This document shows positions 8,509 through 61,258 of a DNA stretch of 64,000 bases, in pieces. The position numbers and the translations under genes are program-made. How positions within the stretch are numbered: the first letter of the stretch is position 1; every line of letters starts with the position of its first letter. Under the pieces are notes generated by a model. It saw only the letters and a program-made list of their open reading frames with translations, did not search any database and was not told where the DNA came from. This stretch comes from a virus. The DNA is taken from IMG/VR virus record IMGVR_UViG_3300033182_000991, positions 48,920-112,919 of that record; one strand, given 5' to 3'.

Positions 8509-9123
8509 ATGAGAAGATATAGAATGACTGAGTCAGAAAAGAAAAGGATATTAACTTTACATGAGACTGCCACAAAAAATGTATATTTGAGTGAACAGAG
8601 TAGTGAAGTTGACTTTGGGTATGGACATGAAGGTAAACCTGCTGGTCAAGAAGTGTTTGACCACATTAGGAGTTTTGAAAAGTTTGTTCCTTATGTTTAT
8701 GATGACGCGGTTTTCCCATCAAAGCCTTATGACCCTAACTCAGGTAGTCCCAAGGGAACACTAACTATTGGTTATGGTACTACTAACCCTGACATTATCC
8801 AAAAATATCTTAATAAAATGACTCAGGAAGAGGCAATGAGGCTTTCAGCTGAGGATATAAAAGACGCTGCGAAGACCGTTAAGGACTGGCAAAGTAAAGA
8901 CCCTGAAAATCGAAAACTAACCAAGGGTATGTATATTGCTCTGATTGATATGGCGTATAATAGAGGTCGTACTAACTTCATGCAGAGTGGGGTATTAAAA
9001 CAAATCACAAAAGGAAATTATAAACAAGCCGCACAGGAAATATTAAATGGTAAAGGTATTTGGGGTCACCCAGAGAGATTGAAAAAAGACTATGAGATGT
9101 TCTGTAGAGACGGAGGTTGTTAA
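8509..9123 (+). CDS. GH24-type lysozyme with N-terminal virion-targeting-like leader
   Basis: HIRSFE (catalytic E), Y.D, TLTIGYGT, ALIDMAYNRG; leader MTESEKKRILTLHE..LSEQ; ATATTTATAG at ~8485. Confidence 0.8.
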   Translation: MRRYRMTESEKKRILTLHETATKNVYLSEQSSEVDFGYGHEGKPAGQEVFDHIRSFEKFVPYVYDDAVFPSKPYDPNSGSPKGTLTIGYGTTNPDIIQKYLNKMTQEEAMRLSAEDIKDAAKTVKDWQSKDPENRKLTKGMYIALIDMAYNRGRTNFMQSGVLKQITKGNYKQAAQEILNGKGIWGHPERLKKDYEMFCRDGGC

Positions 9124-9134
9124 ATTATAGACAG

Positions 9135-10550
9135 ATGAAAACATTATTAAAAGAAACGGGTTTACGTAACATTGGTGAGTTAGCCAAAAGATATCCAAAG
9201 GCAAAGATTTACTTCCACCAAGATTTGGATGGGGTAACAACAGCTTTGGCGATGAAGAATTATTTGGAAGACAATGGTATCAAAGTGGTTGATGCTGAGA
9301 TTATCCAATACGGTGATAAAGAGTTTGCGGTTAAGAAACAAGATGCCACGGGTGATACGATGCCAGTCTTAGTTGACTTTGCTCACGGTAAACCAATGTT
9401 CGTTATCCACACTGACCACCACGATAGTCAAAGTGGTGTTGAAGGTGATACCGCCACATCATTTAGACCTTCACGTTCAAATGTTGCAACAATCTCAGAT
9501 GTGATGTCACCAAAGGACATCTTTCCTGCTGACGATATTACTTTAATTTCAACTGTGGATTCTGCAGACTTTGCTAAGTATGGATTGAAACCAAAAGATA
9601 TTATGAACTTCATCTTTAGATTAGATAAAGATAAGTCGCTACAAAAGAATAAAATGGCTTTAGGTTTGGCCGCAAACAAATTGATGTTGGCGTATAAGAA
9701 CAAACCTGGTTTTATGGAGGAGTTGGTGATGACATCAAAACCATCATTGTTGAACATCTTCCAAAACATTAGAAGAATTGCTGACAGAGAAAACTATGCG
9801 TCTCCATTGATGATGGCTGCGAATCAAGAAGACTACATTGAGCAGAGAAATCAAGACCCGAACCTTAATTATAAAGATGGTATCATTTACCAATACGGTG
9901 GAGGTAAGATGTTCAAACCAGGTTCATACGACAGATACACACCATTTGAATTACATCCTGACGCTGACTTCTTAATTACGGTTTGGCCGATGGGATTGGT
10001 TCAGGCATCATGTAACCCATTCAAAAAAGAAAGAGAGTTAAAAGGTGTGAACTTAGGTGAGATTGCTCAAGAAGTGTTGAGTAAGTGGGAACCTAAATTA
10101 AGAGAGAAGATTATTCCTTTATCAACCATCAAATGGATTTCTGAGAGTAGTAAACAATTTGGTGAGGATTCTGTAGGTTTCACAAACGCAGATTTGGAAG
10201 CGTTCTACGGTAAGAAGATTAGAGGAATGGAAGGTGGTGACCAGTATATGGAAAACCTAAAACAAATTATGGATAAGAACTTCTCTGAGTTAAGTGAAGA
10301 TGAAATGAAAGTGTTGGACAACTTGGGTGTTCCTGCTTGGGAGATGATTCAAGCAAACTCAGGTGGTCACAAATGTATTACAAATATTTCAGCTCTTAAC
10401 TACTTTGGTAGAAGTAACAGACCTCCTCAAGGTGGATACAAATATAACAGAGGTGGTGGAGATGCACCATACGTTAAGTTCGCTAAGATGATAGGACAGG
10501 AGTTCTATAGAATATTAAGGGAAAAGATTGACGGAAGTAAATCAGAATAA
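9135..10550 (+). CDS. DHH-family phosphoesterase
   Basis: HQDLDG, LVDF, TDHHD, SGGH motifs. Confidence 0.82.
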   Translation: MKTLLKETGLRNIGELAKRYPKAKIYFHQDLDGVTTALAMKNYLEDNGIKVVDAEIIQYGDKEFAVKKQDATGDTMPVLVDFAHGKPMFVIHTDHHDSQSGVEGDTATSFRPSRSNVATISDVMSPKDIFPADDITLISTVDSADFAKYGLKPKDIMNFIFRLDKDKSLQKNKMALGLAANKLMLAYKNKPGFMEELVMTSKPSLLNIFQNIRRIADRENYASPLMMAANQEDYIEQRNQDPNLNYKDGIIYQYGGGKMFKPGSYDRYTPFELHPDADFLITVWPMGLVQASCNPFKKERELKGVNLGEIAQEVLSKWEPKLREKIIPLSTIKWISESSKQFGEDSVGFTNADLEAFYGKKIRGMEGGDQYMENLKQIMDKNFSELSEDEMKVLDNLGVPAWEMIQANSGGHKCITNISALNYFGRSNRPPQGGYKYNRGGGDAPYVKFAKMIGQEFYRILREKIDGSKSE

Positions 10551-10898
10551 TGAGAAGGAGACTTTGTCTCCTTTTTTTATGCCGAGTTGTTTTGTCATAC
10601 CTGCTGGTAGTTCCAATACTTTATCACCATAACCAGTATAAGATTCACATTCCAACTCATCTTTACAGATAGGACAATTTTCGTGGATGGTATCTACTTC
10701 GTCGTTATTGATAAAAATAATATCCAAAGGAACAATACAATCAAACATCCAAAACGATTGTTCACCTTTGGTTGGCATCAAGAAATACATACCTTGAAAC
10801 TCATCATTAAAACGCTGTCCTTGCATTCCTTTGGTGATGGCTTCTTTGGTAACACAAAGTTTAACTTTGATATCTGTATTTCCTATTGAAACTTTCAT
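10542..10898 (-). CDS. DUF192 family protein
   Basis: GMYF..FWM...PLDIIFI...VLELPAG....GIKKGD; start moved to MKVSIG. Confidence 0.85.
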   Translation of the reverse strand: MKVSIGNTDIKVKLCVTKEAITKGMQGQRFNDEFQGMYFLMPTKGEQSFWMFDCIVPLDIIFINNDEVDTIHENCPICKDELECESYTGYGDKVLELPAGMTKQLGIKKGDKVSFSLF

Positions 10899-10927
10899 AT
10901 ACTTATAAATATCTAAACAATCATAAT

Positions 10928-11335
10928 ATGAATAAATACGGAGGAGTAATTGTAAGGTGTAACAATAAGGTATTGTTATGTAAAAGAAATGCTGAAGGCT
11001 CATTACCTGGTCATTGGTCGTGTCCGGCTGGTAGTGTTGAAGAAGGTGAAGAACCATTGAAAGGTGCGATGAGAGAGTTTTTTGAAGAAACTAACATCAA
11101 ACTATTGAAAACGCCACAGTTTTGTGGTATAATTAAGAGAACCAATAGAGACGGTAGTGAGATTAAAGGTGAAATGTATTGTTACCTTTATGATTGTGAA
11201 GAAGAAGTATATCCTGATTTAGATAAAGCTAAGGACGGTGATGAACATACAGAATGTGGTTACTTCGGAAAAGACGAGTTACCTTCTCCAATGACGGAAC
11301 AATTTAATAAATTACTAAATATAATCTTAAAATGA
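10928..11335 (+). CDS. NUDIX hydrolase
   Basis: Nudix box G.VEEGE....AMREFFEET. Confidence 0.92.
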   Translation: MNKYGGVIVRCNNKVLLCKRNAEGSLPGHWSCPAGSVEEGEEPLKGAMREFFEETNIKLLKTPQFCGIIKRTNRDGSEIKGEMYCYLYDCEEEVYPDLDKAKDGDEHTECGYFGKDELPSPMTEQFNKLLNIILK

Positions 11336-11547
11336 GTTTAATGTATCAAGCCCTCGTAGCAAAATACGAAGCAGACCTTTTAGAAGCAAAGGCAACCTTA
11401 GAAGTTTACCTAAACAATTCAGTTGGTATTGGTGAACACCCTCAACACTTGGAAGAAATGGACAAGATGGTCGGGAGAATGGAATCTGCAAGTGGAAAAT
11501 TAAAAGCGCTTAAATCTAATTTCAATGAAAAGGGTATGGCAATCTAA
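11332..11547 (+). CDS. conserved phage protein (GIGEHP motif)
   Basis: VYLNNSVGIGEHP. Confidence 0.75.
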   Translation: MSLMYQALVAKYEADLLEAKATLEVYLNNSVGIGEHPQHLEEMDKMVGRMESASGKLKALKSNFNEKGMAI

Positions 11548-11636
11548 CGAGCCACTAAGGAAACATTCAGGGTATTTCAAACTATCTTATAACCCAATGG
11601 GTTACATCATAAAGGAAATGACCAAAAAAATTAAGA

Positions 11637-11663
11637 AAACTGCTTGACCGAGCAGTTTTTTTT
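11637..11663 (+). terminator. intrinsic terminator
   Basis: aaaactgct-tgaccg-agcagtttttttt. Confidence 0.7.
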
Positions 11664-11746
11664 ATTATCTTCATATAACTTTTGACAGATAAGGGAATAT
11701 TTATACTTTACCCTACTGATTTAATCAGAAAAATTTGTTAAAATAA

Positions 11747-11795
11747 TTTGACACTTCCAAAAATATGTTTTAGATTTGTCAAAGTTCTTTGAAAT
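11747..11795 (+). promoter_or_regulatory. Bacteroidota sigma70-type promoter followed by boxA-like element
   Basis: TTTG (-33) at ~11747, TAGATTTG (-7) at 11771-11778, GTTCTTTGAAAT at 11784-11795. Confidence 0.7.
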
Positions 11796-11797
11796 AT

Positions 11798-12611
11798 TGG
11801 TCATGTTTATGGACCGACTTTTGTATTATCTCTTCGGAGATTATCCTTTCCAAAGGAGTTGGACATAGACAGACACGGCGGTTTAGCGTCGTTAGATAAC
11901 CCCTGTGAGGGGACTAAAGGGATTGAAGCGGGATTAGTACACCGTGGATATTCGCAGTCGTGAGGCTGACAACTAAACAAAGTGGCTACGGCTGATTCCC
12001 CGAGGGCAACTGCTGGGGGGAAGAGGTTACTCTGAGTCCGTGGAATATCAGAGTTGAGATGGTGACATCAACAGGAAAAGCTACAGGTGACGGTTCGACA
12101 CACTCTGCAAGGTGTCGTAGGGCTGGGTACCAGTCTGATGGGTTTCCGAGACGTTAAAGTCTACGAAGTCCTGACTGACCGTAAGTTTGCAGACTTACAG
12201 AGAGGTGTGAAGCATTCTGTTCTCCAAAGGAACGGACCTTCTCCCGAAGCACATCTTTCCTTCTTCCACAATGCTAATTTAATTAATCAATTAAATACGA
12301 GCAAGAGTCTTCGGGCGTTGACAACGAAAGGTGTCTAAAACTCCGAGTGTAAACTAACGGAGTCATTGATAGACCGCAAGTCTTTCAATGTCAATTACAA
12401 AAGACCTGTTGGGACGGCCATCCCTTCATGAACTCGCAAGGTTCAACAGAGTTAAGTAGTAGTTGAGTAGTTGTTAACGAATACGAGTGGTTAACGTAAG
12501 TAACCGACACTGACTTGATACGATAGGCAACTATTGTGGACAATGTGAGCAACCGACTATTAGGGTACACTCACGAAAGACAGGTCACATAAACGTGTAG
12601 TCTCAGCGTTC
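11798..12611 (+). ncRNA. large ornate structured RNA (GOLLD/ROOL class)
   Basis: GC-enriched ~810 nt without a credible ORF. GNRA/UUCG hairpins: atctc-ttcg-gagat, cccct-gtga-gggg, cagtc-gtga-ggctg, gacc-gcaa-gtc, gaactc-gcaa-ggttc, atag-gcaa-ctat. Long-range gacctgt/acaggtc pairing. Own promoter and terminator. Confidence 0.8.
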
Positions 12612-12632
12612 TATACCTCATATACCTTCCTT

Positions 12633-12664
12633 GACCTCGGTGCTAACCCACCGAGGTTTTTTTT
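12633..12664 (+). terminator. terminator of the large RNA
   Basis: acctcggtg-ctaacc-caccgaggt followed by a T-tract. Confidence 0.85.
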
Positions 12665-12713
12665 ATGCTCTTAGTTGTTTGATAAGAAAATATTTCTTAT
12701 CTTTGTATAACAA

Positions 12714-13001
12714 ATGAAGACAACTATGGTATTAGAAAGAAACATCAAAATCATCCACCCACAATTCGGAGAACTATTGAACGACTTCTACAATGACGAG
12801 GTTCAGTTTAAGTTGTTCCTTCAGATGGTTCACTCTTGTGTGGAGTTGAAGCAGGACCTATCGTTCTTCAACGGTCGTGATTTCTACGTTCATGTTCCTT
12901 ACGAACTTCTTCGTCAATCCATCATCTTGGGTAATACTAAACCTCAGGAGGAATTGACTTTGGGTCAGTATGCTGTCCGTAAATCTAAGATGGAGGAGTA
13001 A
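12714..13001 (+). CDS. hypothetical protein (early promoter)
   Basis: TATCTTTG promoter element at ~12698 directly upstream. Confidence 0.75.
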   Translation: MKTTMVLERNIKIIHPQFGELLNDFYNDEVQFKLFLQMVHSCVELKQDLSFFNGRDFYVHVPYELLRQSIILGNTKPQEELTLGQYAVRKSKMEE

Positions 13002-57180: not shown

Positions 57181-57228
57181 ATTTCAAAGAACACTACAAA
57201 TATACAACTCTTTTTCTTTCTATCAAAC
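57181..57228 (-). promoter_or_regulatory. early promoter plus boxA-like element for the tRNA cluster
   Basis: Minus strand TTTG..TATATTTG then GTGTTCTTTGAAAT. Confidence 0.7.
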
Positions 57229-59710: not shown

Positions 59711-59748
59711 ATTCGTTAAAGTATTACTATGTCAAAGAACTCACTTTG

Positions 59749-59965: not shown

Positions 59966-60060
59966 TGGTGTAGACGGGATTCGAACCACGTGGCACGGTC
60001 GGTTTCAATGACCTGCTCTACCATGGGAAGAATAACATCTTCCACCTGAGCTACTACACC
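59966..60060 (-). tRNA. aberrant tRNA-Phe(GAA)-like with extra hairpin in the D-loop
   Basis: Acceptor GGTGTAG/CTACACC; insert GGAAGA-TGTTAT-TCTTCC; loop TTGAAAC. Confidence 0.65.
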
Positions 60061-60318: not shown

Positions 60319-60392
60319 TCGCGGAGGTAAGGATTCGATACCCACACTGTAACAGGTGTTTCACTGCCGTCTCTATCTTGGGCTACTCCGCA
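60319..60392 (-). ncRNA. degenerate tRNA-like element
   Basis: Acceptor TGCGGAG/CTCCGCG, TCGAATCC T-loop, 8-nt loop TGAAACAC, poor D-stem. Confidence 0.5.
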
Positions 60393-60447
60393 TTTGTGCC
60401 CCGGGCCGGGCTCGAACCGGCACGGACATTACTGTCCACAGGATTTT

Positions 60448-61145
60448 CATACCAACTACGACTTTCATCGCCATCATAAGATGTTTGTGGTCTGGACTTT
60501 CTCTTAACCCTCGTCTTTACGTTAGGGTTCCTCCCGTCAAGTCTCTACACGTCCCTAAATGTTTTTACCACGATAGGTTGTGGTCTGAGAATGACAATTA
60601 GGACAAATGATTCTTAAGTTTTCTTCTCTATGGTCGTTTCTTATACCATTGATATGGTCTAATTCAAAACTTAACTTTTCACCATTCCAATCTTTAATAC
60701 CACATACTTCACATTTTTTCTCTTTAATACCTTCGTTCAACAAACGAATTCTGAGTTTATTAGTTTGGTAATGTGGATGTTTACCTTCTAAAATCTCATT
60801 TGTTGGGATTTTAGACTTTGGAGAAGGTTTATTAGTTCCTCGGGCACCTTGATTTGGTTTATACACATTTAACTTTTTAGCCTTTCTTATGAAAGTGTTA
60901 TAATGTAATCCAACTCTTGTCGCCGCACGAGCCATAGTTACTTCTTCTTCACATGCCCTGATTATATCCTCATCACTGATGTTTATCTTTTTCATTACTG
61001 TCTTTTTTAATAAATATAGACATAACGGAAAAAATAACAATAGTGTCTACCATTTAGGTTTCGCTCGGGATTGCCATTTAACAGGTTTCCCCGAATTTGA
61101 GAGGTTTTACATTAAAGGTTTCCCTTTATGCACTCAATTTAATCT
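60448..61145 (-). mobile_element. group I intron (trnL-UAA type) with HNH ORF in the P6 extension
   Basis: Core elements AAATTCGGGAAACC (P), GGCAATCCCGAGC (Q), GTAGAGACTTGACGGG (R), AAGAGAAAGTCC (S); terminal G; insertion after U34. Confidence 0.92.
60555..60995 (-). CDS. intron-encoded HNH homing endonuclease
   Basis: CEVCG, LDHING...D.REENLRIICPNCH; N-terminal HTH-like segment. Confidence 0.92.
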   Translation of the reverse strand: MKKINISDEDIIRACEEEVTMARAATRVGLHYNTFIRKAKKLNVYKPNQGARGTNKPSPKSKIPTNEILEGKHPHYQTNKLRIRLLNEGIKEKKCEVCGIKDWNGEKLSFELDHINGIRNDHREENLRIICPNCHSQTTTYRGKNI

Positions 61146-61258
61146 AAGTCCGGCGTGTCTACCAATTCCACCACCGGGGCATTCATTCCAATATTTCAAA
61201 TAACTTGTTTCCTTTTCAGTGATTCAAATATACGACACATAATGTTAATGGACAACAC

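Follow-up and report, generated by a model that had tools for sequence, protein, structure and literature searches.

ROOL RNA forms an octameric or hexameric, phage-associated RNA cage. The rRNA (rrn) antitermination complex of bacteria contains NusA, NusB, NusE/S10, NusG and others. GOLLD RNAs are among the largest non-coding RNAs of bacteria and phages and form cages, and the family (RF02032) was reportedly described by Weinberg et al. in 2009. Here we analyse positions 11747–12664 of a 64-kb window (the whole stretch of DNA under study, i.e. bases 48920–112919 of a 112.9-kb IMG/VR viral contig of 112,919 bp). This segment almost certainly encodes a member of the GOLLD family, and its leader carries an element that resembles the boxA of rRNA operons.

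The env-38 cage construct is 833 nt long, with a 5′ domain at residues 1–420 and a 3′ domain at 421–833, and forms a 14-mer (PDB 9MEE; Kretsch et al. 2025, PMC12286853). Residues 497–538 form a disordered linker, and the self-complementary, covarying loop L21a was the argument for a symmetric intermolecular kiss, bridge B8 (PMC12286853). GOLLD RNAs have a total size of about 700–830 nt, and the number of subunits in the cage is determined by their 5′ domain, with the 3′ domain by itself yielding a decamer, the 700-nt Streptococcus agalactiae RNA assembling as a dodecamer and env-38 as a tetradecamer (PMC12990946). In rRNA operons, boxA recruits NusB/S10 (NusE), leading to a Rho-resistant antitermination complex (PMC12360218).

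That GOLLD is a giant phage RNA building RNA-only cages is already known, and the locus adds no new family. The new detail concerns expression. The phage lineage described below places GOLLD, like its tRNA arrays, behind a boxA-like signal of the kind that its likely Bacteroidota hosts use for rRNA, which is probably an undescribed mode of expression. Taken as a whole, 11747–12664 is very probably a stand-alone GOLLD transcription unit in a large, tRNA-rich phage, likely of Bacteroidota.

Identity and architecture of the RNA

We scanned the whole window with the Rfam 15 covariance models using Infernal. GOLLD was the sole non-tRNA match, at 12200–12609 on the plus strand, with 292.3 bits (E = 1.5e-82) against a gathering score of 150 bits for RF02032. 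The match was untruncated (positions 1–416 of a 416-position model), and the full viral record contains one GOLLD copy. A permissive rescan of 11500–12800 at E ≤ 1 produced no match to ROOL, OLE, HEARO or group I/II introns, the extras being two sub-threshold chance matches on terminator hairpins. An earlier note on this DNA had guessed at a GOLLD/ROOL-type RNA, and the guess was right as GOLLD. ROOL shares with it a large, ornate RNA of phages or prophages, an RNA-only cage and an internal disordered linker; in sequence and fold the two are unrelated.

As the RF02032 model spans only the conserved 3′ domain, the remainder of the RNA was delimited from relatives. These were collected by a motif scan of IMG/VR followed by blastn, and a second pattern scan added a dozen. 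About 60 viral contigs were homologous to both GOLLD halves, with 5′ halves 71–94% identical, and the total rose to ∼70 after the second scan; six loci of that scan scored below the RF02032 gathering score and are not GOLLD. The window copy was aligned with 35 distinct full-length copies, giving 36 in all. No match to the RNA was obtained by blastn among 50,697 deposited phage genomes, so there is no cultured relative and no annotated host. Scanning bacterial genome contigs with a GOLLD 15-mer returned at least 120 loci, and all of those listed were chance matches by blastn.

In the alignment, conservation starts abruptly at 11876, and the preceding 92 nt can be aligned only among close relatives. 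The env-38 cage construct starts at the point that mirrors 11875 onward and stops at L27 (12609), and we therefore took 11876–12609 as the functional core; the variable leader falls outside the cage-forming construct. The core measures 734 nt, with a 5′ domain of 324 nt and a 3′ domain of 410 nt. The GOLLD architecture, in which a variable 5′ domain is joined to a universally conserved 3′ domain, is present, and both domains are conserved and covary among the relatives.

RNAalifold gave a consensus of 202 pairs for the 36 copies, and compensatory changes occurred in 98 of these; covariation on homologues was among the checks that the earlier note had proposed. For the 5′ domain, covariation was measured on 11876–12259, i.e. 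the 5′ domain plus the first hairpin of the 3′ domain. Here there were 106 pairs with 98.9% of cells paired, and 50 pairs had changed on both sides. Column shuffles gave 29.9 ± 2.7 pairs changing on both sides, with 0/500 shuffles reaching 50, and sliding the partners by 1–3 columns gave 7–12. The thermodynamic stability of the single sequence was weak (z = −1.67). Because this stability is unremarkable, the covariation is the real structural evidence.

The earlier description of a GC-enriched block without a conserved open reading frame (ORF) also applies. GC content is 0.47–0.525 in the block versus 0.26–0.38 in the flanks, and the longest frame in 11548–12713 has 83 aa (12087–12338). A protein-coding role for this frame was rejected: it is open only in this copy, relatives stop after 8–63 codons, and the length differences are not multiples of three.

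Two structured domains and an AT-rich linker had likewise been noted, and both are borne out, the linker lying at about 12260–12308 and varying in length. Rather than marking the boundary between the two domains, it follows the first 3′-domain hairpin, and in the L096/L079 group it holds an additional hairpin. By analogy, it is the putative counterpart of the disordered, inward-pointing env-38 linker.

An unbiased search of unpaired alignment columns for long-range covarying pairings found three. The pseudoknot 12243–12249/12309–12315 clamps the base of the linker (7 bp, 4 compensatory, 100% paired); the others are a pairing of 11881–11886 with 11973–11978 (6 bp, 2 covarying) and a loop–loop contact between 12105–12108 and 12189–12192 (4 bp, 1 covarying). 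Each may be intra- or intermolecular.

The two long-range contacts proposed before were not sustained by the alignment. The pairing of gacctgt (12403) with acaggtc (12580) had 64% of cells paired and no compensation, and both arms pair locally. Instead of 12403–12409 with 12580–12586, the alignment pairs 12403–12408 with 12447–12453 (98%) and 12581–12587 with 12511–12517 (99%, with CG/UA/UG exchanges), both as in the Rfam consensus. The suggested pseudoknot between gtctc (12600–12604) and gagac (12148–12152) had 73% of cells paired. In that case the loop UCUC is invariant while its supposed partner drifts and is part of a local hairpin that itself covaries (12147–12165).

The loop of P21a is self-complementary. 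Its central GC is found in 36/36 copies, GGCC in 31 and the palindrome AGCU in 1. We infer, by analogy with bridge B8 of env-38, that an L21a kiss of this copy would be intermolecular. The L27 loop, which organizes the 3′ domain in GOLLD RNAs, matches GUAnUCUCA, with UCUCA unchanged in 36/36 copies.

The copy shares with env-38 a full-length 3′ domain match, the L27 loop, both P21a and P21b, a self-complementary L21a and a phage-borne location. It also shares the position of the linker after the first 3′-domain hairpin and the linker-clamping pseudoknot (GAUAGAC/GUCUAUC in env-38, by eye). The consensus 5′ domain of GOLLD consists of helices P1–P13; over the first ∼50 nt, again by eye, the 5′ domain of this copy opens with the same hairpin, UNAAAUAA and a second hairpin. 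The clearest structural departure is the length of the 5′ domain, which is about 325 nt here versus 420 nt in env-38 (about 95 nt shorter), making the copy a further natural variant for how the 5′ cap sets cage stoichiometry. The S. agalactiae GOLLD (700 nt, dodecamer, PDB 9L0R; PMC12990946) belongs to the same family and has a similarly reduced 5′ domain (about 325 nt), but it is without P21b, whereas this copy has P21a and P21b.

The transcription unit and its boxA-like leader

A sigma70 promoter had been proposed upstream of the RNA, and a consensus promoter scan reported TTGACA-17-TAGATT. The promoter itself (11747–11778) stands; its type does not, the better description being a Bacteroidota sigma-A promoter (−33 TTTG / −7 TAnnTTTG). 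The sigma-A −7 box of Flavobacterium is TAnnTTTG, located from −12 to −5 (PMC9723704), and this position therefore predicts a transcription start at about 11783. Among 26 distinct relatives, 17 have TTTG 20–21 nt upstream of the −7 box.

At the other end, the terminator that the earlier note had proposed lies at 12633–12664 and has a covarying stem, with the exchanges GACCUCGGUG/CACCGAGG, AACCUCAGUU/GACUGAGG and ACCUUAACC/GGUUAAGG and an invariant T-run. The leader folds with z = −2.58, and the boxA-like motif is unpaired in the predicted fold. No leader–trailer end-pairing stem of the RNase III type was detected with RNAduplex in the 36 copies (mean z = +0.57 versus shuffles). The promoter and the covarying terminator strongly suggest a stand-alone promoter-to-terminator unit. 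Within the trailer, 12619–12631 on the plus strand reads AUAUACCUUCCUU, which is kept in most, not all, relatives; it loosely resembles the 3′ tail of 16S rRNA, ACCUCCUUU, possibly by chance.

This arrangement differs from those of env-38 and of prophage GOLLD genes in isolate genomes. The env-38 gene lies downstream of a Met-tRNA, whereas the gene described here is tRNA-free and stands alone with a Bacteroidota promoter, a boxA-like leader and a terminator. In the GOLLDs of isolate-genome prophages (L268–L310), a tRNA (Ser, Phe or Trp) starts 11–16 nt after L27, where a terminator is found here, and there is no boxA-like motif upstream. At one further locus, L271, which belongs to a large tRNA array, the GOLLD linker itself contains a tRNA.

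The earlier note had pointed to a boxA-like leader and to rRNA-like expression, a suggestion that is strengthened by the leaders of phage tRNA operons and by the rRNA operons of Flavobacteriaceae. GTTCTTTGA is present in 36/36 aligned copies. Enough upstream sequence was available for 59 loci of the first scan, of which four were excluded as cut-hit artefacts; 54 of the 55 informative loci contain GTTCTTTGA and the exception reads ATTCTTTGAAAT. The motif lies 5–30 nt after the −7 box, with 21–107 nt separating it from the core, and conservation does not extend to its surroundings. A further 12 members of the clade lie outside the alignment, and seven of these have the motif. Across 706 kb of related phage loci there were 56 promoter-linked copies, 55 before GOLLD and one before a tRNA array. 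In another clade, the locus L313 (env-38-like GOLLD, 260.8 bits) has the same layout, with TTTG, TATCTTTG, 28 nt and then GTTCTTTGAAAT. A full-text literature search, with Weinberg 2009 and Morgado 2020 outside its reach, found no paper connecting GOLLD RNA with boxA.

The tRNA genes of the same record are organized similarly. One array is headed by TTTG, 19 nt, TATATTTG, 4 nt and then GTTCTTTGAAAT, i.e. a Bacteroidota-type promoter followed by the 12-mer, and comprises seven tRNAs (Glu, Thr, Met, Gly, Asp, Ala and Pro). In a third unit, TATATTTG is followed after 20 nt by the one-mismatch copy GTTATTTGAAATATTGG and then by a split tRNA-Leu. The fourth copy, GTTCTTTGACAT (59729–59740, minus strand), lies between tRNA-Tyr, whose 3′ end is 8 nt away, and a 113-aa ORF, a position that recalls the internal (spacer) boxA of rRNA operons. 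The four non-coding copies in the record are all in GOLLD or tRNA units; the other four are inside ORFs.

Closely similar motifs occur in bacterial rRNA operons. In both rRNA operons of a Tenacibaculum chromosome, a TATATTTG promoter is followed after 41 nt by GTTCATTGAAT, and GTTCATTGAAAATATTG stands about 105 nt ahead of 16S; the 16S–23S spacer (one read) has GTTCATTGACATATTGG after its tRNAs. As these copies follow the promoter, precede 16S and lie in the spacer, they occupy the classical boxA positions. Their common form is GTTCATTGA(A/C)A, and the spacer 17-mer is identical to the GOLLD leader at 15/17 positions. More widely, Flavobacteriaceae rRNA leaders and spacer read GTTC(A/T)TTGA. 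The pattern GTTCWTTGA-N85-115-AGAGTTTGATC gave 8 sites in 5/81 Flavobacteriaceae genomes, most of the 81 being drafts that probably lack assembled rRNA leaders, and the reversed control gave 0. One of the 8 sites, upstream of 16S, is exactly GTTCTTTGAAA.

Table 1. Features of the GOLLD unit and of the related tRNA-array head
Feature	Position	Strand	Basis or remark
−33 element TTTG	11747–11750	+	20 nt upstream of −7 box; overlaps sigma70-like TTGACA 11748–11753
−7 box TAGATTTG (consensus TAnnTTTG)	11771–11778	+	Such a box in every aligned relative
boxA-like element GTTCTTTGAAAT	11784–11795	+	Conserved in relatives; same 12-mer heads tRNA array
Variable leader, three small hairpins including UUCG loop 11831–11834	11796–11875	+	Closest relatives only
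GOLLD 5′ domain core, about 17 helices	11876–12199	+	Conservation and covariation in relatives
GOLLD 3′ domain	12200–12609	+	RF02032, model 1–416
Linker-clamping pseudoknot, 5′ strand CCCGAAG	12243–12249	+	Pairs with 12309–12315
AU-rich linker, variable length	12260–12308	+	Unpaired in Rfam model; length varies in relatives
Linker-clamping pseudoknot, 3′ strand CUUCGGG	12309–12315	+	Pairs with 12243–12249
P21a hairpin, self-complementary loop CGGCCA	12411–12424	+	Candidate intermolecular kissing loop (env-38 bridge B8)
L27 terminal hairpin, loop GUAGUCUCA at 12597–12605	12593–12609	+	End of GOLLD core
Intrinsic terminator, 10-bp stem (12633–12658) then 8 T	12633–12664	+	Terminator scan
tRNA-array head: TATATTTG, 4 nt, GTTCTTTGAAAT	57181–57204 (12-mer 57181–57192)	−	Identical 12-mer

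Proposed expression and alternative explanations

In its sequence and setting, the element is comparable to the boxA of rRNA operons. Both are U-rich motifs of 11–12 nt in the leader of an untranslated stable RNA. The phage form (GTTCTTTGAAA) is predicted to be single-stranded, and it is one base off the Flavobacteriaceae rRNA-operon motif (GTTCATTGAAA) and identical to it in one genome. Since boxA builds a Rho-resistant rRNA antitermination complex, we read the motif as a host-type boxA serving about 880 nt of untranslated RNA. Host RNA polymerase would initiate at about 11783, and the first transcribed bases, GUUCUUUGAAAU, would serve as a boxA and, as happens in rRNA operons, bring in host NusB/S10 together with the other Nus factors. 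The Nus-modified polymerase would then elongate through the structured RNA in a Rho-resistant manner, helping it to fold during synthesis, and would stop at the terminator. We regard this boxA/Nus mechanism as probable.

A number of observations weigh against parts of this interpretation. The start, ends, processing and abundance of the GOLLD transcript are predictions. The relatives share one gene order (477-aa ORF, NUDIX, GOLLD, 95-aa ORF and, further on, ThyA) and form a single syntenic phage lineage, so that shared ancestry contributes to the covariation counts and their events are only partly independent. The predicted boxA is at +2 of the transcript, far nearer the start than its counterparts in the rRNA leaders studied; it differs from these, too, in sitting at the extreme 5′ end without a leader–trailer processing stem. 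Tenacibaculum uses the A variant (GTTCATTGA), and the T variant was seen in 1/5 informative genomes. Within the clade itself, the five members outside the alignment that lack the motif (L276, L281, L289, L292 and L305, one sub-clade) have the diverged GTTCTTACAC in its place. At 28 of 31 distinct loci of other clades, the 1.5 kb upstream contained no boxA-like motif; by Rfam scan, six of the 31 were chance pattern matches and not GOLLD. boxA is therefore not a general feature of GOLLD and is specific to Bacteroidota-type units. Finally, given a 5′ domain that falls ∼95 nt short of its env-38 counterpart, neither the stoichiometry nor even the closure of a cage can be assumed. In the sub-clade with GTTCTTACAC, that sequence is preceded by a conserved GAUGAGAAAUCAUC hairpin.

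Alternatively, the RNA could be GOLLD without GTTCTTTGAAAT serving as a Nus-factor boxA. The element could then be a promoter-proximal DNA element or an initially transcribed one that adjusts promoter strength at stable-RNA genes, a site bound by a phage or host regulator, or a signal for RNase processing. Such a role would suit its location at +1/+2, where only 4–5 nt separate it from the −7 box of both the GOLLD unit and the Glu-tRNA unit, and there is no boxB/boxC or end-pairing stem beside it. Furthermore, exact GTTCTTTGAAA (an 11-mer) is not above control genome-wide in three Bacteroidota genomes and is absent from the Tenacibaculum rRNA operons. Among relatives, however, the distance from the −7 box varies from 5 to 30 nt, which is unfit for a fixed promoter element. 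In its host-type form, the motif is also found away from any promoter, in the 16S–23S spacer and about 105 nt ahead of 16S, and one phage copy directly follows tRNA-Tyr inside an operon. We consider this explanation improbable.

A second possibility is that GOLLD is trimmed from a longer transcript reading through from the upstream NUDIX/phrog_1811 genes, its own promoter being incidental. The conserved same-strand module from the 477-aa ORF to the 95-aa ORF would allow this, and the GOLLD genes of other clades clearly form part of tRNA operons, the tRNA following shortly after L27. Here, however, the upstream gene is closed by a terminator-like hairpin with a T-run at 11633–11662, and the TAnnTTTG box and boxA are kept upstream of GOLLD in relatives where their surroundings are not, making read-through very unlikely as the source of the RNA. 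The chance that the block is protein-coding, a self-splicing intron or another catalogued ribozyme is negligible, as the 83-aa frame that is open in this copy is broken in relatives, no intron or other family appeared at E ≤ 1 and the helix substitutions are compensatory.

Returning to the proposed stand-alone, boxA-led unit, the ∼735-nt core (11876–12609) would, by analogy with env-38 and S. agalactiae, assemble into a dihedral RNA-only cage of about 12–14 copies. Its caps would consist of the 5′ domains and its ring of the 3′ domains, with the AU-rich linker pointing inward. We consider it more likely than not that this copy assembles in such a way. As to function, our best guess is a scaffold or container tied to the phage translation apparatus (tRNAs, ribosomes) during lytic growth, a translation-linked role that we put forward as doubtful and by analogy.

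With about 70 relatives in its Bacteroidota phage lineage, the locus offers a clean example of a GOLLD unit that runs from promoter to terminator without tRNAs. A functional boxA would account for how a long untranslated RNA escapes Rho and would tie GOLLD to the programme by which the cell expresses its stable RNAs. It would also provide an experimental handle, in that mutating boxA (GUUCUUUGA) or depleting NusB should turn GOLLD off in a phage–host pair. A broader proposal, to which we give not quite an even chance, is that Bacteroidota phages co-opt the rRNA antitermination machinery of the host for all of their stable-RNA genes, i.e. GOLLD (in at least two clades) and tRNA arrays, with the modified polymerase acting both as a Rho shield and as a co-transcriptional folding chaperone required for the cage to assemble correctly. 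In this lineage, GOLLD would accordingly be expressed at a high level, like an rRNA, and without dependence on the tRNAs, and its function would be separate from tRNA processing.

Genome context and neighbouring genes

The phage is large and tRNA-rich, and its host is most likely in Bacteroidota, judging only from the types of promoter and boxA. The contig has a CheckV completeness of 38%, a value that implies a genome near 300 kb. ARAGORN called 20 tRNA genes in the record (20–22 across methods), all on the minus strand and within the last 18 kb, the nearest being about 33 kb from GOLLD. GOLLD genes of phages and prophages typically lie beside or within tRNA arrays, but no tRNA was called in the ∼10-kb loci around 62 relatives.

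In the window, GOLLD has an endolysin-like gene, a NUDIX gene, an M23-peptidase-like gene and ThyA as neighbours. The module upstream (9117–11547, plus strand), found in most relatives, encodes the 477-aa ORF, a NUDIX hydrolase and a 71-aa phrog_1811 protein. For the 477-aa ORF there was only a sub-threshold match to DHH (RecJ/NrnA-like phosphoesterase), and the conserved 95-aa ORF downstream of GOLLD had no family match.

The tRNA region contains further tRNA-like genes on the minus strand, at 60320–60392 and 59966–60060. One of them has an acceptor GCGGAGT.../...ACCTCCGC and lies just upstream of tRNA-Arg, and no tool calls it; the other has an Rfam call of 43.9 bits without an ARAGORN call. 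The split tRNA-Leu-like gene (60393–61232, minus strand) is missed by both ARAGORN and the Rfam tRNA model. Its 5′ half begins at about 61179, and its variable arm, T arm and acceptor 3′ half are at ∼60447–60393. The ∼700-nt intron that splits it is group I-like, with two sub-threshold Intron_gpI matches of 32 and 19 bits (gathering score 50), and a 161-aa HNH endonuclease ORF (60555–61040) lies between them.

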